From a virus, in the IMG/VR virus record IMGVR_UViG_3300027994_000002, positions 1 to 64,000 of that record: a stretch of DNA of 64,000 bases; one strand, written 5' to 3'. Below the pieces are notes generated by a model. That model saw nothing but the letters and a program-made list of their open reading frames with translations. It was not told the DNA's origin and searched no databases. Position 1 is the stretch's first letter; the number at the start of each line of letters is the position of its first letter. Both the position numbers and the translations under genes were made by a program. This document shows positions 1,804 through 57,634 of the stretch, piece by piece.

Positions 1804-1804
1804 A

Positions 1805-4775: not shown

Positions 4776-4897
4776 ACAAAATCGACTGGCTGGGAGTTTT
4801 CTTCGCTTGCCTTGGCGTTTCGGTTGTTACTCCGATCGCACTTTCCAGCCTCTACCTCTGCGTCCTGATTGTTATTGAAATCTGGAAATGCCTATGA
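4772..4897 (+). CDS. small hydrophobic membrane peptide (41 aa)
   Basis: Sequence MNKIDWLGVFFACLGVSVVTPIALSSLYLCVLIVIEIWKCL. ATGA overlaps at both ends. Confidence 0.4.
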   Translation: MNKIDWLGVFFACLGVSVVTPIALSSLYLCVLIVIEIWKCL

Positions 4898-21769: not shown

Positions 21770-22587
21770 TGGACGCTCTCGCCAATGACCCCGTTCTGCA
21801 AGGCAAGATCAACTCGGCCGCACGAGTGATTGAAAAGTGCCTAGAGGTCTACAGAAAGCCCGCAATCCTATGCTCTTTTGGCAAGGATTCGCTTTTAATG
21901 CTCTACATGATTCGGAATTATTGTAGCGTGGATTTGCCTGTCGTTTTTTTCAAGCAACCGCACTTTGCCCGCAAGTTTGCCTTCGGGGATAAAATGGCCG
22001 CCGAACTTGAATTGGAGGTTCATTCCAATATCCCTCCCTTCGGCATCAGCTTGACCAGCAAAAACGGCAAGTCAGAATTGGTTCATCATTTTAGCCTGGG
22101 CAAGCAAACGCTAATGATGCCATTAGGCGTTCAGAGCATCGAAAGCAAAGCAAAGTGGCTGTGCGCGACGGAATCGTTGCTCTCAGGTCCATTTGGGACG
22201 TTTGGCTGGCCCTGGGACGTTGCTTTCTGCGGGCATAAAAGCTCCGACGTTGACCCCCTTCAGGGGCAGGTCCCGCTTTCCGTTGACATTCATCAAATTG
22301 AGGGCTCCTGCCACCTCGCCTACCCGCTGAGGCATTTTACAGATCAGGATGTCTGGCGGCTGACCAAAGCCTGGGATATTCCCGTCAATCGCTTGCGGTA
22401 CGGGAACGCGGATCAGCCTCAAGACGATACGGAGAATTATTTCAACGAAGACTATTTTCCTTATTGCATGAAATGTTGCGATCCCAATCAACCCGATTTT
22501 GTGACTTGCCCTAAAACGGGATTGGAGGTAACAAATATCCATCGCTCCATTCCTCAAATTGACCCCAAAAAAGCCTACTGCTCATGA
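21769..22587 (+). CDS. PAPS-reductase / PP-loop ATP-pyrophosphatase family protein
   Basis: PAILCSFGKDSLLMLYMI matches the SGGKDS PP-loop context of the PAPS_reduct family. A Cys-rich C-terminus is present (CMKCCD...CP). Confidence 0.7.
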   Translation: MDALANDPVLQGKINSAARVIEKCLEVYRKPAILCSFGKDSLLMLYMIRNYCSVDLPVVFFKQPHFARKFAFGDKMAAELELEVHSNIPPFGISLTSKNGKSELVHHFSLGKQTLMMPLGVQSIESKAKWLCATESLLSGPFGTFGWPWDVAFCGHKSSDVDPLQGQVPLSVDIHQIEGSCHLAYPLRHFTDQDVWRLTKAWDIPVNRLRYGNADQPQDDTENYFNEDYFPYCMKCCDPNQPDFVTCPKTGLEVTNIHRSIPQIDPKKAYCS

Positions 22588-24950: not shown

Positions 24951-27900
24951 TGCCATCTCCTTTTGGCGACACCCCCATCTCCTCTCCAGGCGCAAGCCCT
25001 TTCGGCGATACGCCGCACGCGCCAGAGCAGCCAAAAGCTTCTCCTTTTGGAGACACGCCAACGGCACCCGATTCCCGCGAAATCAAAATCGCTCAAGCTG
25101 CAAACGACCCCACTTTTGATCCCGTTCAGGTTTATGCCTCGGTGGATCCCATGTCCGTGAGCCAGCAGCTCAACAATCCATCCCAAGACCCCGAAGAGCC
25201 TGTCTTCAAACAAGCAGCGGAAGAGTTCAATCGCATGATGGAAGTGAGGCAATTTGCCGCCGATGTCTTGAAGCATAAACTGGCCATGAAGGAAGCCAAT
25301 GCGCCCAAGACTTTACTGGGGAAGGTTGGAGAAAATGCGGCCTACGCGGGCGATGTTGCCCTCAATCTAGTGCCCCATAAAACTCCTGAAGGGGAATGGA
25401 GCTCAGGAGGTCTGCTCCACGGCGCAGAAGCGGTTGTCGACATGGTCGCGGCGGCTCCTGGGGCCGCAATCAATACGGTCGTTCAAGGCGCGGGCGACCT
25501 TGGCCTTATCGATAAAAATTCCCCCGCCTACCAAACCGCCGCCCTCAAGAATTACGCCTCAGGGGAAGGCGTTGCCAATTCCCTTTACAACCCCATCACA
25601 GGCCGAGCCGCAGGAAACATTCGGGCCGTCGGACAAGAGCTCGGCGATTGGCTTTCCGGAGGGCCTAAAACGGACGCCGAAATTCATCGCTATCTGGAAT
25701 CTCGAGTTGCCAACCTCCAAAGCCGAGCCAAAACAGAAGAGGCGATGACAGGAGCCTTGAAAGAAGTCGTTGGAGCGCCGGAGGATAGCCAACTCACAGA
25801 TGAATCGAGGGCCATTAAGGAATTTGCCCAAACCAATGCCGAGTTCGCCGTCGATCCCATGAACGTTGCCTTCCTTGGAGCCGGGAGAGCGATGACGGGA
25901 ATCGCTCGTGCCGCAACGCCTGCCATTCGGGCTGCCGCCGTTTCCCCTGTTGTTATTCAGGCCAAAAACCTCGCCGCACAAGCCGCTTCCAAGGGCGTTC
26001 AGGGATTCGGCAAAAGCATTAATACGGTCGGGAATATTGGCGCAAGTTCATTGGGCCAAGCCGCAACCAACATCGCTTTTGGCGCGCTCGCCGGTAAAGA
26101 GCTGGGCTCCGAGCTGGCGGGAGCTGCCGCTGGAGCAATCCTAGGAACCAAGGGGCACGGTATTGCGGGCCCCCTCTGGAATTCGGTCTCTCGAGCCGGG
26201 GGCGCGTTGGAAGGGCGCGGGGCCGAGCTTGCCCCTGATTTCATTGGCCCTGTTCGGCCACCGGGAACACCGGGGGCGTTGTCCAAAATCGCGGGCAACC
26301 CTCTGGCTAAAAATGCCCTCGCTGGAGCTATCTTCTCCCTGCCCTTCCTCGCCATTGCGCCTAATGCGGAAGAAGCTGCCAATACGCTTGGTATTGGGGC
26401 GGCCTTTGGAGTCCTCGGCGGCCTTTCTTCCAAGAATTACAATTACGGCCTGCGTCAGATGGGGCAGAAATACTTTGCGGAACTTGCTCCGGAAAGGTAC
26501 GGGATGCCAGCCGAAGTCAACGGAACTCCAGTCGATCTGGATGCCCTTCACGAACGGGCCATTAAGCAACTCACGCCCCAGCAGCAACTAGCCCTGCAGT
26601 CCATGCGCGGCTTTCTTCCTGGGGCTCAAATTTACGCCCTCAGCCCTCACGACCTAGGGCAAGTCGCTACGCAGGCCGGGCTACCGACGGCCTCCGGTAT
26701 TTACGATGCCCCTCAGATCACGACGCAGCTCAACATTGGGGGCAAGCCCCAAACCGTCATCCTGCTTAATGCCGGCCTCGCGGCCTTGAATCATGAAAGC
26801 GGGCATTTCATTTGGGATAACCTCACCCCCGAGCAGCAAGGTAAGCTCACCAATCAGGTTGCCCAAGTGGACCCCAAAATTCTTCAAGACGCCTATCTGA
26901 AGTACACGCTCGCCCACGCCAAGGCCTTTAATTTTCAAACCGCGCTGCCTAAAAACGCCCTGGCGATTGACGCCTCCGGAAATCCCGTGATAGATCCAAG
27001 CCTGAAGCCGGAGGAAAAAGCCGCCGTTCAGCAGGCGTTGGATTACTGGAATAGCCATCCTGATGGTCTTGTCAAAGAGTACATCGCAGAGAATTTCAAC
27101 GATCTTGCCAATCGCAAGGGCGGCGAAAAAGAATCCCTCGCCGGACATACGGGCAACAAAAGCCTCGCGCAAGAATTTGAGGACGCCTTCAACTCGGTGA
27201 AACAAAGACTCGGAGGCAAAGGCCGCGAATCTGCCCTTGGATTCCAGGTGGATACTAAACTGCAAGATCAAATGCGGGCTGTTTTGAAAGACCTTGCCGC
27301 ACAGCGCAAGCGGGAAGGCATTATAACTCCAAGCCAACCTCCCCCAAGTGCCCCAGGAGCTCCGATTCCGCCCGTAAGCTCCATTGCCCCGCCTCCAGCA
27401 GCAGGAGCGCCTATAGCGGCCCCAACGGCCTCCGCCTCCACGGCCGAACAAACCCGTGTTCAGGGCAATTTTGATGATGCCGCCAAAGCCGGAAAGACTC
27501 TCAAGCTTAACAAGGCGCAAATTCAACAGGGCCTTGAGTCTGCCAAGAGGGATGGCCTCACGGAAACGGAAGATATCGTCAAGCGGATGGTGAATCCCGG
27601 CTATTATCCCGACGGATCCAACATTCTCCCGGGCGGGCAAGTAGAGTCGGCCCTACCATTGGCCAATATCGAGGGCGCAATCGAGCAGGGTAAAGCGAAT
27701 GCCGCCGCTCTTTCTTCTCAGGCGCAAGGCAGGGATCCTAATTTTGACCCCAACGTTAACGAGGTGATCAAACCCCTAGCCAACGAAACCCTCGGCGCAA
27801 CGCCTGATCAAATCGAGGCCCTCAAAGCCAAAGGCTACACACAGGCCCAAATTGATGCCATGCAGCCAAGAGAGATCGAGGCCATTTTAGGCGGTCAACT

Positions 27901-30900
27901 GGGTAACATTCGCGTTCAGTCGGGACAGGGCCTCAAGGCTTCCATTGATCCCTTTGCTCGAACGGGAATCCCCTCCAAAGTCCCGCCGCTGAGCGCCTCG
28001 GGAGGGCTGCCTATTGTTGGCCTGCGGCAAGTGCGAGATCGCATTGTGGATGCCGAAGGCAATATCTCTCAAGGGCCTGTCAAAAAAACCCTTTCCGGTC
28101 GCGCTATCAATATCAATGATCCCGCCGAGGTGAAGCTCGCAAACGATGCCGCAAGGGATTCCGGCAATCCAGATCAATTTGAGAATAACCTGAATGCCGT
28201 CCAGGACGCCATTGCCTCCGGAAGAGAAATCAACTTTGCCTATCGATCCAGCAAATCCGAGGTGGAGGGCTCCCCAACGAATAAAGAGCGCGACGAGGCA
28301 CAAGAATTGTCCGATCTTGGGTTATCCCTACGTGAGGCGGTTCAAAAAACCTTCACGCCAACCAATTTTGAAGTTGATCCAGCAAAACTGGAGCCTGTGT
28401 TCAGTGAAGCAAGTGCTCAAAATGCCATGGCGCGGGCCGCTGAAAAATGGCCAAATCGTCGCGCCAACTGGAACCTATCCGCCTTCCGGGACCTCAGCGA
28501 ATTCAATGCCGCCGCAATGGAAGTCGCCAGGGCCAGCGAGGAAGGACGCCCGATTCAGGGCCTGAACGCCAAACAGATTGGGGCCGTTCGTGACCTTCTA
28601 GAAAAAGAAAACAAGGTTCGCTTCCTCATCAAAGGCTATTCTCAGGACAAGGTCATTGCCAACGCAAAAAACCTTTCCGAGGCAATCGAAGCTTCTGGCC
28701 TGAATTCAGATCCACAAGTCGCTCGCGCCCAGGCCTACCTGAAAAGCGGCGAATGGGTTCAAGATTTAAAAGACCGAAACGAAAACATGGCCCACGGCTA
28801 TCGCGGAGACGGCCAGCCCTTTTTGGATTCTCGGGGGATCGATCAATCTGAAGCTCGTCGCGGATCCGAAGGGGCTCCTACACCTAAAATCATCCCCGAC
28901 GAGCGCATTCAAGTTCTGAACGTCCTGGAAGGAGGAACCAGCGGCAAGTACTGGCCTGAGGCTAGAGAGAATGCGGCGACCGCCGGAAGAGATCCTGTTA
29001 CCGGAAAACCAGCCCAATCCACCAACCCGCTTCAGGCCAAACTGGAAAGCCTGGGCAAAAACCTCTTCCTCGACCGCGCAGGTCGTCGCATTGAAGGCCT
29101 CGGGGACATTGTATCCCCTGCCAGTGAAACGCTCCGCCTGGACCGCGTCGAGGACGCCAGCGGGCAGGCTCCAGTTGAGCTACCGCCCTCCAATTACGCT
29201 CAGCGAGCGGCAGGCTTCATGCCAGAGGCCAACGAGCCTAATAGGCTTGTCAATGAATCCGATTTCACCCATACTAACCAACATGCCAAAGCCCTTAGCA
29301 ACCTTGGATTCACCGCAAGAGAAGAAACTAACCGTTCAGGAAATGTTCGGTCAGGCGGCAGAAACAGCGATGGAGGAGGGCAAGAAATTGACCCATACAC
29401 AGGCACTCGCCCAGTTGCGCCGGAACAGTGGCTACAAAGCTACGTCGACCACCTCTCGTCCGAAGCGGGCAATGGTTCCTACTCAGGCGAAGGCAATCAA
29501 TCCCTCCTCACTCACGCCGAAAACAGCGGGTCCCTTGTCCCGCCTGTAAAAGTCGAAAGATTACAGTCTTTCCCTGGAGGATCCGGCGTTGAACATGATG
29601 TCTACTTCCCGCCGACAGCCAAAGGCCAAACCCAGAAAGTTTACAAGATTACAAAACCGGGAGCCCACGGTTTTAGCGGAGATGAAATTAGCTATGTCAA
29701 GTATATCGATAACCTGAACAAACTGACGGGCGGCAAGCTGGGGGGCGAAATCTTGGGCGTCGCTGAGCAAAGCAAAGTGGAAGACCCTTGGGTCGTGGAC
29801 GATTATCTAGAAGAAGGTGTTTGGCCTGGAATCGTAACCAAATGGAATTACATTCCAGGTAAGGTCCCTGGGCCTCTTTTTGAATCCAAGCTCAAGAACA
29901 CCTACGGCTTCGAGAAGACAGGCCTGAATGAATGGACGCACAAAGACACAGGAGTCGTCTTGAAAGACGCCCATAAGTCCAATTTCATCGAGAACAGTAA
30001 GGGCAAGCTAATTCCCATTGATGTCCATGTCGAAGGCGACGTAACTAAGCCAATGTTTATGCCCGCGGCTGAAGGTTTTGAAAATAAAAGTTCATTGAGG
30101 GAAAGATATACACCGGGAGAACCCGTTAGGCATCGCATTTCAGGCTGGCACGCAACGCTTGCGGAACCGGATGAAATTATTTCCATTCTTAAAAATGGAT
30201 TAATTCCAGGCAAGCGAGAAGCCCCGCAAGGCTGGCCCGGGGAATACAGCGGAAAAGGGATTTATATTCACCAAAGATTTCCTGGCCATGAACTTGAAAA
30301 CGGCTTAGCAGATGGAATTCCTTCAACGGCATTAATTGAACTCAAAGACAATAGGCGATGGAATGAATTGGTTCCAGACGAAGAGGTTGGCGATCCAGGG
30401 GAACTCGCCGCAAGCATAAGGGATGGAACACCAATAGCTGTAGGGGGGGGCTTTGACGCTGGATCTATCAAAAATATATGGCTTCCAGATGTTCCTGCAT
30501 CTCACGAAATCGCAAAAGAAATCGAGAAAATCGCAGAAGAACAAAAGATCATCGTGCCTCCTATTATTTTTGAAAAAAAGGCCAGCTTTATGCCTGAAAC
30601 CGAAAATGGGTTCGATGATTCTATCGATATTCGTAAATCGTACGGAGGAATACTACTCGGGAATGGAAAGTACTATTCCGCAGCAATTGGAGAGCAAGGC
30701 CATGGGAAAGCCTACGATGAAATATTTAAAGAATACGGATTTCCAGCTAAAGACTTTAATGTGTTTGATGAAATCAACGCCGTTAGAATCGTGGATTCAA
30801 AGGGGCGTAATACAATTTACGCGGAATCCTTGAGCAAAAAACCAATATCCAGAGACCAAAAAGAATGGTTGCTAAATCAAGCGATGACGCACGGAAGGAA

Positions 30901-32455
30901 ACTCGTTTTTGATAGCGGAAGTAATTCCAGAGAAATCTATGACCCCAAAAAAGCTGAATTCATGCCCGAAAGCGAACCCATTGAAGGAGAACAAAGGCCT
31001 CTCGCCAATGCAGGCTTCGGGCGCGAAAATGAACTCCATGAAGAAAATCAACCAGCAAATCCCCTCAATTCCGCCGAAGCGTCGCCCGGAAACAATCCGG
31101 ACAGGCAGGCCCTTTCTGCCCGAGAACTTTCAACCCGCTCCAAAGCGCACTACCGGCAATTCATCCGTCAATACGAGCCCGAAGCCCGCCCTTTCATCGG
31201 CCAATTTCTAAAGTCTACTCAAGAGGAATTGCATTCTCTTTCGCCTGAAGATAGGCGGGCGGCCTACGAAGATCTCGTTAATAAGAAACTGCAAGGCAAA
31301 GGCCCAGAAGCAATGGAAATCGCCCAAGGTGAGCTGGGCTACGTGTTGCCAAGCGAAGGAGAAAACGCCAGCGGCCCCTTCGGCCTCACAGTAGAAGAGG
31401 AAGCCCCTTTCTTTGAGGCCGTTGGGATCAATCGCATGGAGGAGAGTGACCTGCCGGAAGCCAATCCCTCCCACCCGTTCATTGATCTCACAGGCGAATC
31501 TTTGAAAGATTTTGAGCTTACTCCCGCCCAATCGGAGCTTGTTGTTCACCCGGTCAAGACAATTCTCAATAAGCTAACGGAAGCGAAGGCTTCCAGCGAG
31601 CTCCCCGAGACGCTTTCCGCCGCCGAGCTCGGCGTTACAACGACTAATATCGAATCGGAGCACCTCGACGCCTTTGACGCGCATTTTGGGAAGAACCAAT
31701 GGGTACTCAAGCCGTTTGATGTGGATAAATCCCTTCAAGGCCAAGGCATTTATTTGCCTGAGAATCTAAGGCGTCTTGTTGCAGGTGAAAAAGCCTCCTA
31801 TAACAGAGGCTATTCCGAACAAGGCTCTGGTAGCGTGGAATTGGCAAAAGAGCACATGCAAGCTGATATCGCCTCCCACGGCATCGAGAATTACATGGTT
31901 CAAAAAAGGCTCGACTTGGACGGGGAAACCCCGGAAAGCATTGCCGCCGGAGAAACGATTCTTCCAGGTGAAATGCGCGTGCATGTCTGGTGCGACATGA
32001 AAGGCGAACCACACGTGATCCCCTACGCGACCTTTGACAAACGGCTCGCCGACAAAAACAATCACACGGCCTTCGGTTACTCCACCAAGGCGACCAAAGC
32101 CGCTGAAAAAGCGGCCTACAAGGCCATCAAAGCCCTGCCTTTAGAAGATCGCATCGGTTCTTTCTTTGGCCCTGATATCGTCCGCCTCAAGGACGGTAGT
32201 TACAAGCCTGTCGAGCTCAACCCGACCTACGTTCGAGGCCAACACGAACCCCTTCCTGGAGAAGAAGAAAGCACGGGGTCAGCCTCCGGCTATGCGGGCT
32301 ACCCAACAGCCATGGCGGCAATCATCGCCTTTCAGCGCGGCGAGCTTCCTTTCCACGCCCAGTTTGCCCTCGAGCAATTGGAGGCAACCCTGCCTAAAAA
32401 GCAATGGCCCCAAGCGACCGAAGAGGAAATGGCCCTCTCCGGCGCTCAGTTTTAA
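24950..32455 (+). CDS. giant multi-domain 'polyvalent' protein (2501 aa): HExxH peptidase + kinase-like + PARP/ART-like + ATP-grasp-like modules
   Basis: Uninterrupted 7.5-kb ORF with a TAATG overlap to the upstream gene. Domain motifs are listed as separate entries. Confidence 0.8.
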   Translation: MPSPFGDTPISSPGASPFGDTPHAPEQPKASPFGDTPTAPDSREIKIAQAANDPTFDPVQVYASVDPMSVSQQLNNPSQDPEEPVFKQAAEEFNRMMEVRQFAADVLKHKLAMKEANAPKTLLGKVGENAAYAGDVALNLVPHKTPEGEWSSGGLLHGAEAVVDMVAAAPGAAINTVVQGAGDLGLIDKNSPAYQTAALKNYASGEGVANSLYNPITGRAAGNIRAVGQELGDWLSGGPKTDAEIHRYLESRVANLQSRAKTEEAMTGALKEVVGAPEDSQLTDESRAIKEFAQTNAEFAVDPMNVAFLGAGRAMTGIARAATPAIRAAAVSPVVIQAKNLAAQAASKGVQGFGKSINTVGNIGASSLGQAATNIAFGALAGKELGSELAGAAAGAILGTKGHGIAGPLWNSVSRAGGALEGRGAELAPDFIGPVRPPGTPGALSKIAGNPLAKNALAGAIFSLPFLAIAPNAEEAANTLGIGAAFGVLGGLSSKNYNYGLRQMGQKYFAELAPERYGMPAEVNGTPVDLDALHERAIKQLTPQQQLALQSMRGFLPGAQIYALSPHDLGQVATQAGLPTASGIYDAPQITTQLNIGGKPQTVILLNAGLAALNHESGHFIWDNLTPEQQGKLTNQVAQVDPKILQDAYLKYTLAHAKAFNFQTALPKNALAIDASGNPVIDPSLKPEEKAAVQQALDYWNSHPDGLVKEYIAENFNDLANRKGGEKESLAGHTGNKSLAQEFEDAFNSVKQRLGGKGRESALGFQVDTKLQDQMRAVLKDLAAQRKREGIITPSQPPPSAPGAPIPPVSSIAPPPAAGAPIAAPTASASTAEQTRVQGNFDDAAKAGKTLKLNKAQIQQGLESAKRDGLTETEDIVKRMVNPGYYPDGSNILPGGQVESALPLANIEGAIEQGKANAAALSSQAQGRDPNFDPNVNEVIKPLANETLGATPDQIEALKAKGYTQAQIDAMQPREIEAILGGQLGNIRVQSGQGLKASIDPFARTGIPSKVPPLSASGGLPIVGLRQVRDRIVDAEGNISQGPVKKTLSGRAININDPAEVKLANDAARDSGNPDQFENNLNAVQDAIASGREINFAYRSSKSEVEGSPTNKERDEAQELSDLGLSLREAVQKTFTPTNFEVDPAKLEPVFSEASAQNAMARAAEKWPNRRANWNLSAFRDLSEFNAAAMEVARASEEGRPIQGLNAKQIGAVRDLLEKENKVRFLIKGYSQDKVIANAKNLSEAIEASGLNSDPQVARAQAYLKSGEWVQDLKDRNENMAHGYRGDGQPFLDSRGIDQSEARRGSEGAPTPKIIPDERIQVLNVLEGGTSGKYWPEARENAATAGRDPVTGKPAQSTNPLQAKLESLGKNLFLDRAGRRIEGLGDIVSPASETLRLDRVEDASGQAPVELPPSNYAQRAAGFMPEANEPNRLVNESDFTHTNQHAKALSNLGFTAREETNRSGNVRSGGRNSDGGGQEIDPYTGTRPVAPEQWLQSYVDHLSSEAGNGSYSGEGNQSLLTHAENSGSLVPPVKVERLQSFPGGSGVEHDVYFPPTAKGQTQKVYKITKPGAHGFSGDEISYVKYIDNLNKLTGGKLGGEILGVAEQSKVEDPWVVDDYLEEGVWPGIVTKWNYIPGKVPGPLFESKLKNTYGFEKTGLNEWTHKDTGVVLKDAHKSNFIENSKGKLIPIDVHVEGDVTKPMFMPAAEGFENKSSLRERYTPGEPVRHRISGWHATLAEPDEIISILKNGLIPGKREAPQGWPGEYSGKGIYIHQRFPGHELENGLADGIPSTALIELKDNRRWNELVPDEEVGDPGELAASIRDGTPIAVGGGFDAGSIKNIWLPDVPASHEIAKEIEKIAEEQKIIVPPIIFEKKASFMPETENGFDDSIDIRKSYGGILLGNGKYYSAAIGEQGHGKAYDEIFKEYGFPAKDFNVFDEINAVRIVDSKGRNTIYAESLSKKPISRDQKEWLLNQAMTHGRKLVFDSGSNSREIYDPKKAEFMPESEPIEGEQRPLANAGFGRENELHEENQPANPLNSAEASPGNNPDRQALSARELSTRSKAHYRQFIRQYEPEARPFIGQFLKSTQEELHSLSPEDRRAAYEDLVNKKLQGKGPEAMEIAQGELGYVLPSEGENASGPFGLTVEEEAPFFEAVGINRMEESDLPEANPSHPFIDLTGESLKDFELTPAQSELVVHPVKTILNKLTEAKASSELPETLSAAELGVTTTNIESEHLDAFDAHFGKNQWVLKPFDVDKSLQGQGIYLPENLRRLVAGEKASYNRGYSEQGSGSVELAKEHMQADIASHGIENYMVQKRLDLDGETPESIAAGETILPGEMRVHVWCDMKGEPHVIPYATFDKRLADKNNHTAFGYSTKATKAAEKAAYKAIKALPLEDRIGSFFGPDIVRLKDGSYKPVELNPTYVRGQHEPLPGEEESTGSASGYAGYPTAMAAIIAFQRGELPFHAQFALEQLEATLPKKQWPQATEEEMALSGAQF
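26792..26806 (+). other. HExxH zinc-peptidase motif inside the giant ORF (codons 615-619)
   Basis: Codons cat gaa agc ggg cat encode HESGH, in the context LNAGLAALNHESGHFIWDNL. Confidence 0.5.
29552..30040 (+). other. protein-kinase-like module inside the giant ORF
   Basis: FPGGSGVEHDVY (Gly-loop-like), KVYKITK (Lys), VLKDAHKSNFI (catalytic-loop-like D..N) and LIPIDVHV (DFG position). Confidence 0.5.
30128..30400 (+). other. PARP/ADP-ribosyltransferase-like (H-Y-E) module inside the giant ORF
   Basis: SGWHAT..IISILKNGLIPGKREAPQGWPGEYSGKGIYIHQRF...ALIELK parallels the PARP pattern hGS..IL..GL......G..fGKGIYFA...E. Candidate catalytic residues are H1734, Y1772 and E1797. The Y-E spacing is shorter than in PARP1. 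Confidence 0.45.
31697..32230 (+). other. ATP-grasp-like module at the C-terminus of the giant ORF
   Basis: QWVLKPFDVDKSLQGQGIY, YMVQKRLDL, GEMRVHVWCDMKGEPHVI, and FFGPDIVRLKDGSYKPVELNP follow the order of ATP-grasp motifs. Confidence 0.55.
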
Positions 32456-39115: not shown

Positions 39116-39295
39116 ATGAAAATAACATGTTCAAGCCAACGAATGGAATACGCGAAGCTTGCGGATGTGCTCTACGAGGCTGTAGATGATTGTCGATTTA
39201 ATATCGACCAAAAGGGATCGCGACCAAGGGAAATAGAGGAAGGCATGCAGAAAGCCTTGAAGGCCTATGAGGAAATGAAAAACAACAAGACCTAA
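39116..39295 (+). CDS. small hypothetical protein (59 aa)
   Basis: Below the ORF-track cutoff. Fills the gap, and its stop is the first base of the next cassette. Confidence 0.4.
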   Translation: MKITCSSQRMEYAKLADVLYEAVDDCRFNIDQKGSRPREIEEGMQKALKAYEEMKNNKT

Positions 39296-39333
39296 AGTTT
39301 TTTATTGCTATTTTTGTAAATAAACGCCATGCT
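39294..39333 (+). promoter_or_regulatory. promoter cassette copy with divergent -10
   Basis: AAAGTTTTTTA-TTGCTA is conserved. No TAGAGT follows at 16-17 nt; the alternatives are CATGCT or an extended TGTAAATAA. Confidence 0.35.
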
Positions 39334-39342
39334 CCAATTCTC

Positions 39343-39807
39343 ATGCAACACCTTCAATCTGACGTCCAACATTTCATGGAACTTGCCCAGCAAGAAACAC
39401 CCAAATATCCCTTCATTCCAACGCCGGAGGTTCGTAAACTCCGGGCAAAGTTGATTCTCGAAGAAGCCCTCGAACAATGCCAAGCGCTCGGCGTCGAGAT
39501 TACAACGACAGCCATCGGCGCTGCCCTTAAGCTGGATGAAGCAGGACTCCAATTTCACCCCGTCAACCAGCCTGATATCACCCTTATTGCAGATGGAATC
39601 TGCGACCAACTTTACGTTTCCATTGGAACCGGCGTGGCCTTCGGCCTCGATCTAGCACCAATCTGGAAACTCGTGCATGAAGCCAACCTGGCCAAGTTCG
39701 GGCCCGGCTCCTATCGCCGCGACGACGGCAAGCAGATGAAGCCTCCAGGATGGGTTGCGCCGGATGAAGCCATTCGCCTCGAAATTCAATCGCAGGTTCA
39801 CGCCTAA
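39343..39807 (+). CDS. mazG: MazG-like nucleoside triphosphate pyrophosphohydrolase
   Basis: RKLRAKLILEEALEQCQALGV and ADGICDQLYVSIGTGVAFGLDL..IWKLVHEANLAKF follow the EExxE / D..y / h.sN..K pattern of all-alpha NTP-PPases. Confidence 0.6.
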   Translation: MQHLQSDVQHFMELAQQETPKYPFIPTPEVRKLRAKLILEEALEQCQALGVEITTTAIGAALKLDEAGLQFHPVNQPDITLIADGICDQLYVSIGTGVAFGLDLAPIWKLVHEANLAKFGPGSYRRDDGKQMKPPGWVAPDEAIRLEIQSQVHA

Positions 39808-39811
39808 AACT

Positions 39812-40588
39812 ATGTCCAAATCACCTGAAAATGGAGCCGCCTTAAAAGGCGCAGCTCACGAACTCAACCCCCGCAAAATCACGCCTCAGCAACTCAAGGC
39901 TATCGAGGACTCCCACAAGGCCTATGGCGACCTATCCGGCGTAATCTTCAACCGCCGCACGCGTAAGCAACTGGGAGGCCACCAGCGCGTTAAAATCATC
40001 GAAGAAGGCGCGGAGGTGCAATGCAAATACTTCCCGCAAAAAGACGCCCAAGGCACCGTCGGAATCGGCTACGTCATTTCCAAGAACATCGGCCGCATTC
40101 CCTATAGAGAAGTCGATTGGCCGGTCGAAAAAGAGCATGCCGCAATGATCGCCGCCAACAGCCACGGCGGGGAATGGGATGATAACCTGCTCCGCAAAAA
40201 CCTAATCCTCATATCGGAAGGAGAAGGCGAAAACGAGGTGGACGCCGGAACCCTGGGCCTGCAAGACGAATTCATGGAAAAGCTGATGCGCGGGGCCGAC
40301 TTGGAGCTCAACGTGCAAGAGCAGGAAGCGAAGGGGCTTATCGAGCCTTTGACAATATCGGAGGTGAAGAACTTGCCTAGCCAAACGAGCATGTTGCAGC
40401 TCTTCTACACAATCCAGACGCGGCCTCCAATCGTACAAGGCCTGAAGGAGTTGCAGGTGCTTTTAGGCACGGCAAACATCAGCGATACGGTTGAAAATCT
40501 GTATCGCTTCTGCCTCAAAAACAAAGAGGCCCTCCAAGACTGGAAAGAGCTTGACAAAAAGCCTAAAGAGGATAAGATCGGCCTATGA
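39812..40588 (+). CDS. ParB/sulfiredoxin-like N-terminal domain protein
   Basis: SGVIFNRRTRKQLGGHQRVKIIEEG resembles the ParB-N 'dG.hR' box. The internal ATG follows the mazG stop. Confidence 0.5.
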   Translation: MSKSPENGAALKGAAHELNPRKITPQQLKAIEDSHKAYGDLSGVIFNRRTRKQLGGHQRVKIIEEGAEVQCKYFPQKDAQGTVGIGYVISKNIGRIPYREVDWPVEKEHAAMIAANSHGGEWDDNLLRKNLILISEGEGENEVDAGTLGLQDEFMEKLMRGADLELNVQEQEAKGLIEPLTISEVKNLPSQTSMLQLFYTIQTRPPIVQGLKELQVLLGTANISDTVENLYRFCLKNKEALQDWKELDKKPKEDKIGL

Positions 40589-41481
40589 AGATCATCCACC
40601 TAACCGAACAAATGCCGGACGAGGATGTCGAACGCCTTGGCGGAACCATGCTGGAATCATCAGCCTACGATATTGTCATCACGGAAGACTGCGATGTCTT
40701 CAAGCCTGAAGGCACGCCGCTCCTCAAGTTCCGCAAAGGTGTGATCCCTGCTGAAATGTGCCTCAAGACCTTTCCGATTTGGGAGGAGGCCGCAACGCCA
40801 ACCGACAACCGAGGCATGGCCGCCGGTGGAGTTCGGGAAGCCAGGCTCAAAAAAGACGGCACGAAGGAAAAACGCACGCGCACCAAGCAAGTGAACAGTG
40901 GCATTATTGGTTTCATGGACGGAAACCCAGCCATTCCCTATTGTAGGCTCACGGCCTTTAATGCAGCGAATATGGATAAATTCCAAGAGTGTATGCCAAT
41001 GATAACGCTCGTGGACAAATTGTTCTCGGAAATCATGCCCGATAGGCATAAGGCGCAAATGGAATATCACTCCAGGACATCTAATGATTTCAAAATCCCT
41101 GGGACGTCCTTTACCACCTTAACCGTCAACAAGAACTTTAGGACGGCGATCCATACCGATAAAGGGGATTTAAAGCAAGGATTCGGAGTCATGGCAGCCC
41201 TATGGAAAGGTAAGCACAAGGGCAGCGTTCTTTGCTTCCCTAAATTCAGGGTCGCCGTGGACATGCAAACAACCGACCTCCTTTGCGCAGATGTCCATGA
41301 ATTCCATGGAAATTCTGCGACCATCGGAATTCCAGGAACCTGGACTCGCATCAGTCTTGTGTTCTACTTCCGCGAAGCTATAGCTTCTTGCGGCACGGCA
41401 GAACAAGAGAGACTCAAAGCCATCACTCGAACTGAAGCGGCCTACGCTCGGCAAGACGCACAAAAAGAACTGCCTCTATGA
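40585..41481 (+). CDS. TET/JBP-family 2OG-Fe(II) nucleic-acid base dioxygenase
   Basis: HxD in TAIHTDKGD (nt 41152-41160), a distal His in DVHEFHGNS, and TRISLVFYFRE (nt 41347-41370), which closely matches the R.SLVFYQH strand of TET enzymes. ATGA overlap. Confidence 0.75.
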   Translation: MKIIHLTEQMPDEDVERLGGTMLESSAYDIVITEDCDVFKPEGTPLLKFRKGVIPAEMCLKTFPIWEEAATPTDNRGMAAGGVREARLKKDGTKEKRTRTKQVNSGIIGFMDGNPAIPYCRLTAFNAANMDKFQECMPMITLVDKLFSEIMPDRHKAQMEYHSRTSNDFKIPGTSFTTLTVNKNFRTAIHTDKGDLKQGFGVMAALWKGKHKGSVLCFPKFRVAVDMQTTDLLCADVHEFHGNSATIGIPGTWTRISLVFYFREAIASCGTAEQERLKAITRTEAAYARQDAQKELPL

Positions 41482-42314
41482 GCTACGAAATCATTATTCC
41501 AAGCCACCGCAGGCCGCAGGCTTTGCTGAAGACGCTTTGCCAATTGCCGAACGAAACCGAAATAACCATTGTCTTCAGCGACCAAGAAGACCTAGATGAA
41601 TTTTACAAATTTTCTCCAGAATTATGGATCAAGCATTCTTGTGTTGTTAGTGGATGCAAGAGCCTGAAAGAGAAATTCGAGTTCATTCACAACATGCCAA
41701 AAATAGGCAATAAAGTGGTCATTGTAGAAGATGACATCGAAGCCTTCCTTGTCAACGTTCAAGGCAAGCTTGTGAGCATGAGCCCAGAGCGCGTAGGTCA
41801 AATGTTCGAGGAAGGATTTGAGGCCGCACGCCTATCCGGCTCCAAAATCTGGGGGATTGCCCCCGTTGCCAATCACTACTTTATGGAATGCTCAGTGGAG
41901 CCAAAACGCCAGAAGACTAGCAAGCTTAAGCTCTGTATTGGCTACTGCTGGGGCTACATCGAAGAGAAGGACGAGCGCATGGTCCCCCGAACCAGCAACC
42001 GGGCCGACGTCGAGCGCTCCCTCCGCTTCTACGTGCGCGATGGCGGCGTGGCCCGGATGGATTGTTACGCCGTCAAAACAAATCCCCGCACAAACCAAGG
42101 AGGGCTCCAATCGGAATTCACCTTGGATCAGCGCATTCAGGCCAACAAAGAGAGCGTGGTCTACCTGCTCAAAAACTTCCCTCGCCTGGTCGAAATCAAC
42201 ACCAAAAGAGACCGTGCAGGCGGCTACGAAGAACTCACCTTGGCAAAGATTTTCGACGACAGGCCTAATCGTCTCAACCTCCTTAAGCTCCTTGGATCAA
42301 AATTATGGGATTAA
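41478..42314 (+). CDS. GT-A-like glycosyltransferase (TET/JBP-associated type)
   Basis: MSYEIIIPSHRRPQ (N-terminal GT-A strand) and VVIVEDDIEAF (DxD). Translationally coupled to the dioxygenase gene. Confidence 0.5.
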   Translation: MSYEIIIPSHRRPQALLKTLCQLPNETEITIVFSDQEDLDEFYKFSPELWIKHSCVVSGCKSLKEKFEFIHNMPKIGNKVVIVEDDIEAFLVNVQGKLVSMSPERVGQMFEEGFEAARLSGSKIWGIAPVANHYFMECSVEPKRQKTSKLKLCIGYCWGYIEEKDERMVPRTSNRADVERSLRFYVRDGGVARMDCYAVKTNPRTNQGGLQSEFTLDQRIQANKESVVYLLKNFPRLVEINTKRDRAGGYEELTLAKIFDDRPNRLNLLKLLGSKLWD

Positions 42315-43024
42315 TTGCTAACGGTCACTCCGGTGACCTCGTCCTCAACATCGGCTCGCACTTCCTCAAGTTCGGCAAGCGCAATGCCGAACAGTACGCC
42401 AAGATGGTGGATAAAGTTCCATTGCCCTACAGGTATCCAAAGGTAGGCCTGTGGAAAGGCGTCCTATCCATCGAGAACCTAACGCGAGCCCCCTACAGTG
42501 CACGGCCCCTCCATGAAAAAGCCGTCTTCGATGTCACGAAGCTGATTGCCTACATGGATCCTTTGATGAAGAAACAATTCGACGCCAATCCGGCCTGGAT
42601 GAAAAAGCTGGAAACCATGCCAAAAGCAATCAGGGCCTATTTTGTTGGAAATATGCTCTGCCGAGAAGACCTTGAATTGCCGATGGGCTACTGCCATGGC
42701 GACTTCACCCTCGAAAACCTCTTCTACGGCAACGGTATTATTTGGGCGATTGACCCCATTAAGGGCTATATCGAATCCCCGGTAATGGACTACATCAAGA
42801 TCCGGCAGGACCTTGTTTACGGCTGGGATGCGCATCGCGGCTACGGCCTACCTCAGGCTTGGCTGGATGTCCACATGGCCCTCTCACAATTCTACAAGCC
42901 TAAGACCCTCCTCAAGCTGGACGCTATGAACATCGCACGCATTTATCCTTACGGAAACAAGCGAACCAAAGATTGGTGCTGGAAAGCTCTCCATCAAGTC
43001 TCTCGAGCCTGGAACAAACTATGA
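42305..43024 (+). CDS. APH/choline-kinase-fold kinase
   Basis: YCHGDFTLENLFYGNGIIWAIDP matches the HGD...N...IDw Brenner motif region of aminoglycoside/choline kinases. Confidence 0.65.
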   Translation: MGLIANGHSGDLVLNIGSHFLKFGKRNAEQYAKMVDKVPLPYRYPKVGLWKGVLSIENLTRAPYSARPLHEKAVFDVTKLIAYMDPLMKKQFDANPAWMKKLETMPKAIRAYFVGNMLCREDLELPMGYCHGDFTLENLFYGNGIIWAIDPIKGYIESPVMDYIKIRQDLVYGWDAHRGYGLPQAWLDVHMALSQFYKPKTLLKLDAMNIARIYPYGNKRTKDWCWKALHQVSRAWNKL

Positions 43025-43656
43025 GCGCCCTTATTCTCCCCTGCGCCGGACAAAGCTCTCGTCACGAAGGTCTACCCAAATGGCTTAAAATGCATCCAGA
43101 CGGAACCATTATGGTGAGGGTTGCGGCAAAAGGATTTACCGGAAGGCCCATAATGGTTGTTCTACAGGAACACCTTGAGCGCATTGGGTTTCATCCAGTG
43201 AATGGTTTTGAAGCCATTGTTATACATAAAAGCGAATCTCAAGTAGACACGGTTCGGCAAGCGATTCAAAAAGCGGACATCAAAGGCCCAATTATCATAA
43301 AAGATTGTGACAATTACTTTGAGCCTCAAGCTCCGATGGTAGGGAACTGCGTCGCCTACGATGTCGATTTGAACCCCGGATGCGCTCGGAGCTATCTCAC
43401 CATTTTTGGGGGCGAAGTTGGTTTCATCGCCGAAAAGAACCCCATCAGCAACCTTTTTTGCGCGGGAGCCTACGGCTTTGAATCGGCGGAAGAATTCATG
43501 GAATTCAGCCAAGGCAAGCAGTATATTTCGCAAGTGATTTCATGCCTGTTGCTCAAAGGTAGGCGGTTCCAGCCGATCCCAATCAAGAACTACGAAGACT
43601 ACGGCACGCAGGAGGCCTGGGATGCCTTTTTAAGAGGTAAAGAGCATCCCGTATAA
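43021..43656 (+). CDS. sugar-/alcohol-phosphate nucleotidyltransferase (LicC/IspD/GlmU-N-like)
   Basis: MSALILPCAGQSSRHEGLPKWL is the canonical N-terminal (I/L)PxAGxxxR...PK signature. ATGA overlap. Confidence 0.65.
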   Translation: MSALILPCAGQSSRHEGLPKWLKMHPDGTIMVRVAAKGFTGRPIMVVLQEHLERIGFHPVNGFEAIVIHKSESQVDTVRQAIQKADIKGPIIIKDCDNYFEPQAPMVGNCVAYDVDLNPGCARSYLTIFGGEVGFIAEKNPISNLFCAGAYGFESAEEFMEFSQGKQYISQVISCLLLKGRRFQPIPIKNYEDYGTQEAWDAFLRGKEHPV

Positions 43657-43692
43657 AGTTTTTATTGCTTTTTAATCAGAAAGCGATATAGT
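43655..43692 (+). promoter_or_regulatory. recurrent promoter cassette
   Basis: AAAGTTTTTA-TTGCTT-16 nt-TATAGT, with ATG 43699 six nt after the -10. Confidence 0.65.
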
Positions 43693-43698: not shown

Positions 43699-44991
43699 AT
43701 GGAACAAGAAATCAAGCAAATCCTCCTCCAGCTCCTTTCTGACGGCAAACTCGAACTAACTCTTAACGATAATTCCATACGGGACGGCATCCGCCGCTGC
43801 CGCTCGGATGTACGGGATCAGATCGATTACGCCATGCAGAATGGCGGCTTCCCCAAAGACCGCGTCCAGAAAATGATGGACGATCAAGTGGGCGGCTACA
43901 AGGAAGAACTCAAAAACAGGCTTGACCGCATCGTCCAAGAAAAGCAGGTGCTCAAGATGGCCTTGCAAGTGAACGAGGGGCCTGTTATCCAGACAGGCCT
44001 CCAGCACAAGCAATTCGCCGAGCTCCTTGCTATCTGCCAAGCAGGCCTGAATGCCTACCTCGTCGGGCCTGCGGGCTCCGGCAAGACAACCGCCGCTGAG
44101 CAAGTCGCCAAGGCCCTCGGCCTGTCCTTTTACTTCACGGGCGCAATCACATCCGAGTTCAAACTCACCGGCTTTATCGATGCCCAAGGCCGCGTGGTTT
44201 GCCCTGCTTTTCGTCGAGCCTACGAGCACGGGGGGGTCTTCCTCTTCGATGAAATCGACGCCTCCATGCCGCAGGCGGTTCTGGCTTTTAACGCCGCAAT
44301 CGCCAACGGAATGATGGATTTTCCAGACAAGACCGTGCCGAAGCACAAGAATTTCTACTGCATCGCCGCAGCCAACACCTTTGGCAATGGTGCGGATCGG
44401 GTTTACGTGGGCCGCAATCAAATGGACGGCGCAACAATCGACCGCTTTGCCTTCCTGGATTGGGGTTATGACGAGGCCCTGGAAAAGGTTCTGACCGATC
44501 ACAACGAATGGGTCACCTACGTCCAGAACGTCCGTCGAGCCGTCGCGGAGCACAAGATCCGGCACGTTGTATCCCCTCGTGCCTCCATGAGCGGCTCGAG
44601 GCTCCTCAAGAACAAAATGGACCGCAAGCAGGTCGAGGACATCACGCTCTGGAAGGGCTTGGATCAAGAAACCATCAAGAAGATCAAGGCCTCGGTCGCG
44701 CAATATCAACCGAAGCCCAAACCTGTTTTGGAACCGGAATTCCGTGGATACGATGAAGGATACGAAAAAGAATATACGATGATCCAAGGGATTAAACATT
44801 TTCGACTCCCTGCCGGAACAAAAGTAAAGAAAGGAGATTGCTTTATTCAGGGTGATCCAATACCGGATTTTTGCGTTCGGGAAGGAACTAAAACAACCAG
44901 TATTGATAATGTCTACCGCTCCGCTGAGACTGAATACGAGAAGCAGAATCGAATCGATTTAGCGATAAAAAAAACCACCTTCGACTTCTAA
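43699..44991 (+). CDS. AAA+ ATPase, MoxR/CobS (AAA_5) type
   Basis: Walker A LVGPAGSGKTTAA, Walker B GGVFLFDEIDA, and sensor region IAAANT...DGATIDRF. Confidence 0.75.
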   Translation: MEQEIKQILLQLLSDGKLELTLNDNSIRDGIRRCRSDVRDQIDYAMQNGGFPKDRVQKMMDDQVGGYKEELKNRLDRIVQEKQVLKMALQVNEGPVIQTGLQHKQFAELLAICQAGLNAYLVGPAGSGKTTAAEQVAKALGLSFYFTGAITSEFKLTGFIDAQGRVVCPAFRRAYEHGGVFLFDEIDASMPQAVLAFNAAIANGMMDFPDKTVPKHKNFYCIAAANTFGNGADRVYVGRNQMDGATIDRFAFLDWGYDEALEKVLTDHNEWVTYVQNVRRAVAEHKIRHVVSPRASMSGSRLLKNKMDRKQVEDITLWKGLDQETIKKIKASVAQYQPKPKPVLEPEFRGYDEGYEKEYTMIQGIKHFRLPAGTKVKKGDCFIQGDPIPDFCVREGTKTTSIDNVYRSAETEYEKQNRIDLAIKKTTFDF

Positions 44992-45035: not shown

Positions 45036-45932
45036 ATGGCTAAACTTAGTTTTATTGAAGAGCGCATTGCCCACATTAAATCCAATCATCCAGACGCCCT
45101 GTTTCCTCCAGTGGAAGCAGAACAATACAAAAACGCAGGCGCAATCACCTATCGCATGAACAAAGATGAGTTCTTGCAATACGCGGAAAAGGATCGCCTA
45201 AAGAAAGGCGTTTCTGTTCGGTATAACCCAAAGGGTACCAATGGGGATTTTGTACTTCCGACATTTGAGGAGGCCATGCAGAAGGCTCGCAATGGCTGGG
45301 CGGAAAAGACGGAAGCCTGCCATAAAATGGCTTCCAGAATAGATGATCGCATCCGTAAGATGACACCCAAAAAAGTCGTTTATTATGATGTGTTTGGAGG
45401 TCAGCCTGATGTTGGGCGTTACCTATCGGGGGATCCAGAAAACATGCTGCACCGCCAAGACTCCGACTCACAAGCGCAAGCTTCTAATCGCATTGTCAAA
45501 GTCGTCCTTGATGTCAACCGCAATGCCTTCGGATATAACGCCGCTTTAGCAGAGGCCCGAGGAGCAATCGCAATGGCCGCCGTGGACGCAATCGAGCAAT
45601 CCGGTAAAAGGGCCGAAATTCACATCTCCTCTGGCTTCCGGGGAGGCGGCAAGGCCGTGGAGTTTGCCGTCCAACTCAAGCGCTCCCAAGACCCACTCGA
45701 CCTGGACATGCTGGCCTTTTTTTGCTGTTGCGCTGATGTCGAAACGCGGTTCATGTTTCAGTGCGCTCATAACATTGGGTTCGATATGAATTATGGCGGC
45801 ATCGAGGCCAGCGATCAAGGCGACCTTTACATTGGCTACATGCCAGAGGAGGCGACAAGCAACCCCGAGGGGTGCATTGAAAAAACCATCCAACTCCTCA
45901 ATCAAGTCGGCCTGCAACTCGAAGATAACTGA
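45036..45932 (+). CDS. hypothetical protein, probable partner of the AAA+ ATPase
   Basis: 298-aa ORF following the MoxR/CobS-like ATPase. In such pairs the partner is often vWA/CobT-like. No motif confirmed. Confidence 0.5.
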   Translation: MAKLSFIEERIAHIKSNHPDALFPPVEAEQYKNAGAITYRMNKDEFLQYAEKDRLKKGVSVRYNPKGTNGDFVLPTFEEAMQKARNGWAEKTEACHKMASRIDDRIRKMTPKKVVYYDVFGGQPDVGRYLSGDPENMLHRQDSDSQAQASNRIVKVVLDVNRNAFGYNAALAEARGAIAMAAVDAIEQSGKRAEIHISSGFRGGGKAVEFAVQLKRSQDPLDLDMLAFFCCCADVETRFMFQCAHNIGFDMNYGGIEASDQGDLYIGYMPEEATSNPEGCIEKTIQLLNQVGLQLEDN

Positions 45933-57079: not shown

Positions 57080-57277
57080 TGACGCTTGTCTGACGGAGGA
57101 CAAAGCGGCTTAAACAAAGGAGGTCAACAAGCGTATGGCCTCAGTCATGACCTATCTACTGCATTTGTAACATATTATTTTAAAAACAGGCCGTTTTTTG
57201 GCCGTTTTACCTCGAAAAGAAAAAGCTTTACATTTTCGACAAGAAAAACCGGAAATTTAGTTGCACATAAAACTATC

Positions 57278-57634
57278 ATGCCAAATCCGATTCGCTTAAT
57301 CGTCTGCGGTGGACGCGATTTCCTTGATTGGCATGTCGTATGGATGCGCCTGGATCAGGTTCATTCCAAGCGAGGTATCAGTCAAATCATCGCCGGAGGC
57401 TGCTCGGGAGCAGATGCCTTTGCAACCGATTGGGCAAGAAAGAATGATGTGCCAATCAGGGAGTACTACGCGGCCTGGGAAAAGCACGGGAAAGCCGCCG
57501 GGCCTATCCGCAACCAGCAAATGATAGACGACGGCAAGCCTGATGGCCTCATTGCCTTTCCGGGAGGCCGAGGCACAAACGACATGGTGCTGCGCGCTCA
57601 AGTCGCAGGCCTAACCGTATGGGATTTAAGATGA
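57278..57634 (+). CDS. SLOG-superfamily protein, DUF2493 / YspA-like
   Basis: LIVCGGRDF...IIAGGCSGADAFATDWARKN...AAWEKHGKAAGPIRNQQMI...IAFPGGRGTNDMV is the typical DUF2493 motif order. Confidence 0.7.
   Translation: MPNPIRLIVCGGRDFLDWHVVWMRLDQVHSKRGISQIIAGGCSGADAFATDWARKNDVPIREYYAAWEKHGKAAGPIRNQQMIDDGKPDGLIAFPGGRGTNDMVLRAQVAGLTVWDLR

Follow-up and report, generated by a model that had tools for sequence, protein, structure and literature searches.

Base J is made in eukaryotes with cellular UDP-glucose, and in the AmgK/MurU and LicA/LicC pairs a kinase of the APH fold makes a phosphate ester from which a nucleotidyltransferase of the GlmU/IspD fold produces a nucleoside diphosphate (NDP)- or CDP-activated donor. 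TET dioxygenases encoded with clustered glycosyltransferases have already been described in phages (PMC8256090), and clusters of this kind sometimes include epimerases as accessory sugar-nucleotide enzymes, with APH phosphotransferases and ParB proteins as neighbours (bioRxiv 10.1101/2023.12.21.572611). ParB-associated phage 5-methylpyrimidine dioxygenases (5mYOXs) oxidise thymine to 5-hydroxymethyluracil (5hmU) after replication, require their cognate ParB on double-stranded DNA and are found without adjacent C5-methyltransferases, which occur in only ~6% of the mined 5mYOX pathways (O'Toole et al., PNAS 2026, PMC13229309). In RB69/DLP3/HY126-type phages, whose DNA contains arabinosyl-5-hydroxycytosine, the UDP-arabinose that serves DNA arabinosylation is made from arabinose-5-phosphate by way of the 1,5-bisphosphate and then the 1-phosphate. 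The enzymes are AfhE, in which a MurU/LicC-like nucleotidyltransferase is fused to a kinase with an aminoglycoside phosphotransferase among its closest structures, and the HAD phosphatase AfhF (PMC13326640). Here we analysed a 64,000-nucleotide stretch of viral DNA (IMG/VR record IMGVR_UViG_3300027994_000002, positions 1 to 64,000; hereafter the window), in which six consecutive genes at positions 39343-43656 appear to bring together a ParB-TET pair, a glycosyltransferase and a kinase-nucleotidyltransferase pair.

With moderate confidence, we propose that this locus encodes a post-replicative thymine hypermodification module, in which ParB-assisted TET oxidation of thymine is followed by glycosylation with a sugar from a donor pathway encoded in the same gene cluster. 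The TET/JBP protein (C), aided by the cognate ParB-like protein (B) as its proposed activator, would oxidise thymine in the phage DNA to 5hmU, as suggested by homology and synteny with characterised ParB-dependent thymine dioxygenases. The glycosyltransferase (D) would then use a nucleotide-sugar to glycosylate the hydroxyl so formed, giving a base-J-like 5-(glycosyloxymethyl)uracil. The kinase (E) would phosphorylate a sugar or sugar-phosphate at the anomeric position and the nucleotidyltransferase (F) would turn the sugar-1-phosphate into the NDP-sugar, a step proposed because of the folds, the conserved gene pair and its recurrence beside glycosyltransferase genes of the same family. Since most relatives of F carry a HAD phosphatase, a route via a sugar-1,X-bisphosphate is suggested, as in the AfhE/AfhF or heptose pathways, and the lack of the HAD domain in F itself suggests a start from a free sugar or the use of a host phosphatase. 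The likely purpose of the predicted modification is to shield the phage DNA from host nucleases, and a regulatory role may be an alternative. The genes and the sites that bear on these assignments are as follows.

39343-39807, + strand: gene A, MazG-like, 154 aa
39812-40588, + strand: gene B, ParB-like, 258 aa from the ATG (a TTG at 39755 gives a 277-aa open reading frame)
40585-41481, + strand: gene C, TET/JBP, 298 aa
41152-41160, + strand: HTD motif of C
41305-41313, + strand: distal His (HGN) motif of C
41347-41370, + strand: Arg-x-Ser strand motif of C
41478-42314, + strand: gene D, putative TAGT-family glycosyltransferase, 278 aa
41727-41735, + strand: EDD motif of D, an acidic DxD-like motif with invariant D85-D86
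42305-43024, + strand: gene E, predicted APH/choline-kinase-fold kinase, 239 aa
43021-43656, + strand: gene F, predicted nucleotidyltransferase, 211 aa from the ATG (alternative TTG at 42973)

The first-pass annotation, made from the sequence alone, had described six consecutive genes from MazG to a nucleotidyltransferase, and all six open reading frames (ORFs) were recovered on the + strand with the same coordinates, identical to the gene calls on record for the source contig. Homologues elsewhere were found for each of the six proteins, and the order kinase, nucleotidyltransferase, AAA ATPase is preserved in a related contig (L085; loci are cited by such L numbers where needed). The recorded calls, the homologues and the conserved order together indicate that A-F are genuine genes rather than chance ORFs. 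Adjacent genes overlap by 4 nt (B/C), 4 nt (C/D), 10 nt (D/E) and 4 nt (E/F), and A and B are separated by a 4-nt gap. The overlaps that the annotation had noted among the last four genes are thus real, and the chain comprises five genes, B to F.

Protein C firmly belongs, as judged from its sequence, to the TET/JBP family of Fe(II)/2-oxoglutarate 5-methylpyrimidine dioxygenases. It matched Pfam Tet_JBP (PF12851) with 91.9 bits against a cutoff of 34.9 (E 3.3e-26), a profile search that could have placed it outside the family, and it contains the HTD motif (aa 190-192), the distal His in HGN (aa 241-243) and the strand RISLVFYF (aa 255-262) to which the first-pass annotation had pointed. In an alignment with phage homologues, the Fe(II) ligands H190, D192 and H241 and the 2-oxoglutarate-binding R255 are invariant, and identity to 80 viral homologues ranges from 36 to 48%. 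As a single query against viral contigs, C found nothing, and relatives emerged once an alignment was used; likewise the sequences of C, E and F alone gave nothing significant against the PDB. Past its conserved Cys, C continues for 29 residues, compared with ~20 in the ParB-less homologue of phage P12024L.

Protein B, previously called ParB-like, matched phrog_620 (ParB-like, E 2.6e-15) and contains GGHQR at aa 55-59; its own sequence had no Pfam match. An iterated local search starting from B recruited ParB-like ORFs; in 59 of 82 loci such an ORF is the immediate upstream neighbour of TET, with 5 further loci truncated on the upstream side. In the recruited family, 40 of 43 members matched ParB_N (PF02195), and the family profile matched the structures of Noc, Spo0J and ParB with E 4e-12, in agreement with the earlier call. 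B is unusually divergent, being ~20% identical to the other TET-linked ParB proteins. The same ParB-TET pair was found in Pelagibacter phage HTVC112P.

The substrate of C, for which the first-pass annotation had allowed either 5-methylcytosine (5mC) or thymine, is likely thymine, because a ParB partner lies directly upstream and no C5-methyltransferase was found in the genome. The window is a circular permutation of the MEGAHIT contig k141_1536959 (ENA; 68,861 bp), whose coordinates can be reconciled only with an overlap of its ends by 141 nt, equal to the assembler k-mer, and a complete circular assembly of 68,720 bp is therefore indicated. The 4,720 bp outside the window (L168:2547-7266) contain part of a 766-aa protein that begins at the 3' end of the window, an RNA ligase, a 425-aa protein and the start of a 492-aa ORF. 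Among the scanned window ORFs of at least 70 aa, no member of a DNA methyltransferase, thymidylate synthase or hydroxymethylase family was detected; the precomputed contig annotations, which also cover the sequence beyond the window, list none either, and a six-frame motif search of the full 68,720 bp found no ORF with C5-methyltransferase signatures. The absence of a C5-methyltransferase and of a hydroxymethylase, noted earlier for the window, therefore stands, and across the whole 68.7-kb genome neither a C5-methyltransferase nor a thymidylate synthase homologue was detected. A jackhmmer search from the RB69 ThyA-like protein, which is of low sensitivity, found no ThyA-like ORF in any fetched locus.

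A cytosine route was weighed against the thymine assignment. Here a host methyltransferase, or an unrecognised phage one, would make 5mC, the TET enzyme would oxidise it to 5-hydroxymethylcytosine (5hmC), and the product would be glycosylated by D. Characterised clade A/B phage TETs act on 5mC and their glycosyltransferases glycosylate 5hmC (PMC8256090; bioRxiv 10.1101/2023.12.21.572611), and phage thymine dioxygenases also oxidise 5mC in vitro (PMC13229309), for which reason this route was kept as a rival. The genome also encodes several proteins without a recognisable family, including the 766-aa and 425-aa ORFs, but neither Pfam nor motif searches of the complete genome revealed a C5-methyltransferase, the ParB-adjacent architecture marks the thymine dioxygenase subclass, and C5-methyltransferases are, as noted above, rare among the mined 5mYOX pathways (PMC13229309). 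We therefore consider the cytosine route quite unlikely.

Immediately downstream of the dioxygenase, D appears to be a divergent relative of the TAGT family. Its own match to Pfam TAGT (PF20691) fell below the threshold (18.3 bits against a cutoff of 27.5, E 0.0024), and it is classed with the family because PF20691 was matched by 20 of the 22 proteins in the family assembled around D from related loci (best E 1.7e-25). A further match was obtained to phrog_842, a beta-glucosyl-HMC-alpha-glucosyltransferase (E 3.7e-8), which represents a T-even DNA glucosyltransferase. Residues R12, D85, D86, D177 and G208-G209 are invariant in the family, and these results bear out the GT-A-like transferase of the first-pass annotation. 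TAGT-family genes lie downstream of TET in 16 of 83 loci, among them those of the cultured phages P12024L and Cr30. The TAGT family profile gave only chance matches against the PDB, word-indexed searches for homologues of D, E and F yielded no more than 2 to 4 proteins per query, and nothing could be learned from the gene neighbourhoods of P0157 and P0158, the closest homologues of D.

Profiles built at the family level also support the assignment of the last two genes. E, whose own Pfam APH match reached just E 0.14, contains GHSGD (aa 7-11), HGDFTLEN (aa 131-138) and IDP (aa 149-151); in its family, APH was matched by 35 of 39 members (best E 6.4e-11) and Choline_kinase by 12 of 39, with conservation of the catalytic loop HGDxxxxN and of the downstream metal-binding Asp. 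E is thus predicted to be a small-molecule kinase of the APH/choline-kinase fold, consistent with the APH-type kinase named earlier. F, which alone had no Pfam match, contains LPCAGQSSR (aa 6-14, followed by PKW), the motif on which it had been called a nucleotidyltransferase, and KDCDN (aa 94-98). The closest structural relative of its family is the uncharacterised Vibrio NDP-sugar pyrophosphorylase 4evw (profile E 1.3e-14 against the PDB), followed by IspD (1.4e-3) and then RmlA and GlmU, and the members matched NTP_transf_3 in 18 of 56 and a HAD domain in 25 of 56 cases. F is accordingly best described as a putative sugar-phosphate nucleotidyltransferase. An exhaustive search yielded 566 relatives of F at 50% clustering, mostly of 340-360 aa because of a C-terminal HAD phosphatase domain that is common in these relatives and missing from F.

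Comparative analysis of the loci that carry these genes showed E and F to be a conserved pair: of 80 viral loci with an F relative, 72 also have an E relative, whose gene ends where the F homologue begins. The pair was found beside TAGT genes in several settings: L135 carries TET, two TAGT paralogues, the kinase and a nucleotidyltransferase without HAD; L084 and L106 carry a ParB-like gene, TAGT, the kinase and a nucleotidyltransferase-HAD fusion, together with a radical-SAM-like gene; L042 and L048 carry ParB, TET, TAGT, a small MobA-like nucleotidyltransferase and an apparent HAD-kinase fusion, the HAD part of which is a weak match; and loci of the L200 type carry ParB, a HAD-kinase fusion, a 144-aa protein with an FHAGH motif, TAGT and the radical-SAM-like gene. 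We take the FHAGH motif to be typical of HIGH-motif cytidylyltransferases of the TagD/HldE type. Three unrelated types of nucleotidyltransferase thus occur beside the genes of one glycosyltransferase family, in each case together with an APH-like kinase and, as a rule, with a HAD phosphatase, a pattern expected if each set supplies the donor of that transferase. The prediction in the first-pass annotation of oxidation followed by transfer of a group from a dedicated donor pathway fits this comparative evidence.

In other viral genomes, the same cassette lies mainly in glycan-biosynthesis islands without TET (loci L088-L167, for example L088:5457-8714), where its neighbours include NeuB, SDR epimerases/dehydratases, DegT aminotransferases, FkbM methyltransferases, GT11/GT61 and WavE, and it was found both in giant-virus metagenome-assembled genomes (MAGs; L091, L107 and L127) and in marine phages. 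This setting argues that the general job of the kinase and nucleotidyltransferase is the activation of a small molecule, a sugar, rather than action on DNA, and it bears on two rival explanations of their role in the window.

According to one of these, E and F make no sugar donor: the kinase would act on DNA, either on 5hmU, as does the P-loop kinase 5-HMUDK, or on an attached sugar, or the pair would make a LicA/LicC-like CDP-alcohol donor for a phosphodiester-linked group. The APH/choline-kinase fold does include LicA-type kinases, with the Choline_kinase matches given above, IspD- and LicC-like cytidylyltransferases are among the profile matches of F, and a TagD/HldE-like HIGH-motif cytidylyltransferase occurs in the L200-type loci; kinases that activate 5hmU are, moreover, a known step of thymidine hypermodification (PMC8256090). 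The sole transferase in the unit, however, belongs to the TAGT sugar-transferase family, and no LicD, CDP-alcohol transferase or amino-acid:DNA transferase was found in the unit. The cassette, in addition, resides mostly in sugar-biosynthesis islands with no DNA-modifying gene nearby, and its frequent fusion to HAD suits a bisphosphate-to-1-phosphate route, all of which makes this explanation improbable.

The other explanation holds that E and F, perhaps with D, serve a glycan of a virion protein or the cell surface, so that 5hmU would be the end product of the ParB-TET pair. It draws on the location of most cassette relatives in general glycan islands, giant-virus MAGs included, on the many ParB-TET loci without any glycosyltransferase, and on a second sugar-related cluster with an SDR epimerase gene (4888-5814) beside the structural genes of this genome. 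We give it only a slim chance, since the overlaps from the ParB to the nucleotidyltransferase gene point to translational coupling, D falls within the TET-associated glycosyltransferase family, and the set of TAGT, kinase and nucleotidyltransferase genes recurs next to ParB- and/or TET-type genes in four or more independent arrangements (L135, L042/L048, L084/L106 and L200-type).

Several observations nevertheless weigh against the proposed chain. The choice of thymine over 5mC is drawn from synteny and the absence of a methyltransferase, and most of the TAGT-linked TET loci have no ParB, while most of the ParB-linked ones have no TAGT. D, E and F each fall below Pfam thresholds when taken alone, and their assignments depend on the family-level profiles. 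The AlphaFold2 (AF2) model of D was unusable (predicted local distance difference test, pLDDT, 39.8) as a result of a shallow homologue alignment, and the alternating strand/helix pattern of D comes only from that low-confidence model. No HAD homologue was found elsewhere in the genome, the F family gave no significant hhalign alignment with the RB69 gp53 nucleotidyltransferase, so that homology to the nucleotidyltransferase domain of AfhE is undetectable, and the predominance of the cassette in islands without TET suggests that its products are not intrinsically DNA-directed. In addition, the phage is known from metagenomes only, and the pathway is a prediction from its sequence.

The gene overlaps and a repeated motif on both sides of the six genes indicate one transcription unit. 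The 20-nt motif AAAGTTTTTTATTGCTTTTT is present 11 times in the window, where chance alone would give 0.01 copies, at 32678 (- strand), 38815, 39294, 43654, 44990, 45932, 51500, 53033, 56449 (- strand), 57828 and 59783, and every copy lies just 5' of a gene in the early/replication half of the genome. Aligned copies show TTGCTT, a spacer of ~17 nt and TAGAGT, with an ATG 5-7 nt further on, which suggests phage-specific promoters that drive leaderless mRNAs, as the ATG follows TAGAGT so closely. Shine-Dalgarno sequences are absent 5' of all six cluster genes, in agreement with leaderless mRNAs. Two copies flank the locus:

39294..39313, + strand: promoter-like motif copy, 30 nt before the MazG start, with one core mismatch and no TAGAGT element
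43654..43673, + strand: promoter-like motif copy sharing the last 3 nt (the stop codon) of the F gene and preceding the AAA ATPase gene

These copies are the probable 5' and 3' limits of the unit, and because they are successive copies, the six genes would make up exactly one inter-motif unit, with the reservation that the copy before MazG has no TAGAGT. The limits were drawn from this phage-specific motif rather than from a generic scan for sigma-70 promoters and terminators, which gave background-level, uninformative results. A nucleotide search of the cluster against GenBank phages returned no match, and nothing of use came from NCBIfam.

MazG (A) matched Pfam PRA-PH (PF01503) with 39.8 bits against a cutoff of 21.3 (E 6e-10) and the nucleotide pyrophosphohydrolase family phrog_671 (E 1.2e-27), which upholds its earlier identification. 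Its place in the proposed operon was upheld in part: A is co-located with the other genes and, lying within the transcription unit, is probably co-transcribed with them, but a MazG homologue is present in just 2 of 83 TET loci, and MazG is not a conserved member of the module. Any role of A in the pathway would be hypothetical. Further copies of the motif precede the AAA ATPase (43699-44991) and DUF7192 (45036-45932) genes downstream. Both were considered as pathway members and rejected, as each is found in 0 of 83 TET loci and has its own promoter-like motif.

The radical-SAM-like genes mentioned above belong to a highly conserved family of ~415 aa with CxxxCxxC and six more invariant Cys, a weak match to Pfam Radical_SAM and more than 220 viral relatives (L084:1111-2361, L106:9011-10258 and loci within L175-L254, for example L200:3926-8236). 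No relative of this family was found in the PDB and no match in GenBank phages. Among 80 radical-SAM loci, a ParB-like gene lies 1-4 kb upstream on the same strand in 65, a TAGT gene ends at the start of the radical-SAM gene in 23, a HAD-kinase fusion is present in 12, and TET is present in none. The family thus sits where TET sits in the window module; it may activate the base in place of TET without a need for oxygen, or it may tailor the product. A broader reading of these loci is that the glycosyltransferase, kinase and nucleotidyltransferase trio forms a portable cassette, which makes its own donor, glycosylates DNA and plugs into two alternative ParB-coupled base activators; these may be the oxygen-dependent TET in the window and the radical-SAM-like enzyme in L084, L106 and many of the L175-L254 loci, the latter as an oxygen-independent functional substitute for TET. 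The product in the window may then be an undescribed thymine hypermodification, composed of 5hmU and a phage-made non-glucose sugar or sugar-phosphate. We put this forward only tentatively and regard it as unlikely.

Gene neighbourhoods of other TET genes were also recorded. HTVC112P (L001) carries ParB, TET and an FkbM-type methyltransferase; Nonlabens phage P12024L (L002) carries TET, TAGT and an annotated DNA methyltransferase; and Caulobacter phage Cr30 (L003) carries a MazG-like gene and TET, with TAGT 3 kb downstream. The TET genes of these three phages are labelled 'SNF2 DNA repair protein' or 'hypothetical' in GenBank. In another locus, a 569-aa ORF (L009:941-2650) apparently fuses the TET and TAGT domains, with a ParB-like gene directly upstream.

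Elsewhere in the window, the second sugar-related cluster (75-5814) adjoins the structural genes. Its SDR epimerase/dehydratase (4888-5814; Pfam Epimerase E 3.9e-45) could act on a nucleotide-sugar for DNA or serve virion glycosylation, and the cluster further contains a GIY-YIG endonuclease (3454-4035) and family-less proteins at 75-1229 (part of the 492-aa ORF, with LWLDDDM), 2735-3469 and 4032-4775. The structural region includes very large ORFs at 24950-32455 (2,501 aa) and 14052-17765 (1,237 aa), the 2,501-aa protein being unusually large for a 69-kb phage, and a weak match to a PAPS-reductase-like domain (21769-22587, E 1.1e-4) lies within the structural block. A YAcAr/SLOG-family protein (57086-57634, E 8e-19) is encoded in the early region.

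If true, the proposed pathway would be a bacterial-virus counterpart of base J, made wholly after replication with a self-activated sugar donor, and its product would be a new chemical species among natural DNA bases. It would also give a function to the uncharacterised kinase-nucleotidyltransferase(-HAD) cassette with its 566 detected relatives, and provide a compact five-gene set for the enzymatic tagging of thymine in DNA with no need of prior methylation. The related loci suggest that the partners of ParB-like proteins include DNA-modifying enzymes of more than one class. None of these points would overturn what is currently understood.

Compared with base J synthesis by kinetoplastid JBP1/2 and JGT, the predicted pathway is alike in the oxidation of thymine to 5hmU by a TET/JBP enzyme and the subsequent O-glycosylation by a GT-A-like transferase. 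Unlike the module in the window, base J synthesis has, to our knowledge, no ParB partner and no dedicated donor pathway. The ParB-dependent phage thymine dioxygenases (5mYOX clade C1, such as 5mYOX176/ParB176; PMC13229309) share with the window a ParB-like gene directly upstream of TET/JBP, no nearby C5-methyltransferase and hypermodification genes downstream; glycosyltransferase, APH, kinase and HAD domains are among their typical neighbours, of which a glycosyltransferase and an APH-fold kinase are predicted here. The locus differs in its unusually divergent B, and its likeness to the tested enzymes is one of gene arrangement. With the phage C5-methyltransferase/TET/glycosyltransferase clusters (Burke et al. 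2021, PMC8256090; Pyle et al. 2024, bioRxiv 10.1101/2023.12.21.572611), it shares post-replicative TET oxidation and a subsequent glycosylation step, for which the cluster encodes a GT-A or GT-B enzyme, whereas those clusters start from 5mC made by a clustered methyltransferase, of which none is present here, and have no characterised donor pathway of a kinase and a nucleotidyltransferase.

The donor-making genes resemble AfhE/AfhF in that a phage-encoded APH-like kinase and a nucleotidyltransferase are predicted to supply an NDP-sugar to a DNA glycosyltransferase. The E family aligned with the kinase domain of RB69 gp52 (hhalign probability 93%, E 2.5e-7), and the HAD part of the F relatives aligned weakly with RB69 gp51. 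RB69 has its kinase and nucleotidyltransferase in one fused protein, makes the base with a ThyA-like enzyme ahead of replication and also encodes an arabinose-5-phosphate isomerase, whereas in the window the two are separate genes, no HAD or isomerase was detected and base activation would be post-replicative. The relation thus appears to be one of shared logic with at most distant homology, rather than membership of the same system. The AmgK/MurU and LicA/LicC pairs follow the same two-enzyme logic, and no specific sequence relationship between them and E/F was found. The first-pass annotation had drawn a parallel to LicA/LicC, and both folds are indeed shared; AfhE/AfhF (PMC13326640) or AmgK/MurU is the better analogue, because the transferase here is a sugar transferase and the relatives carry a HAD phosphatase, while LicA/LicC predicts a phospho-alcohol donor for which no matching transferase is present. 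The annotation had also found no characterised match for the combination. The literature we searched likewise describes neither a post-replicative ParB-TET-TAGT pathway with its own NDP-sugar synthesis nor any function for the kinase-nucleotidyltransferase(-HAD) family; the novelty was overrated, however, as ParB proteins, GT-A transferases and APH kinases beside phage 5mYOXs had been catalogued (PMC13229309; bioRxiv 10.1101/2023.12.21.572611). Every class of component has thus already been described, and the combination in this locus is best seen as an extension of the work published in 2021-2026.

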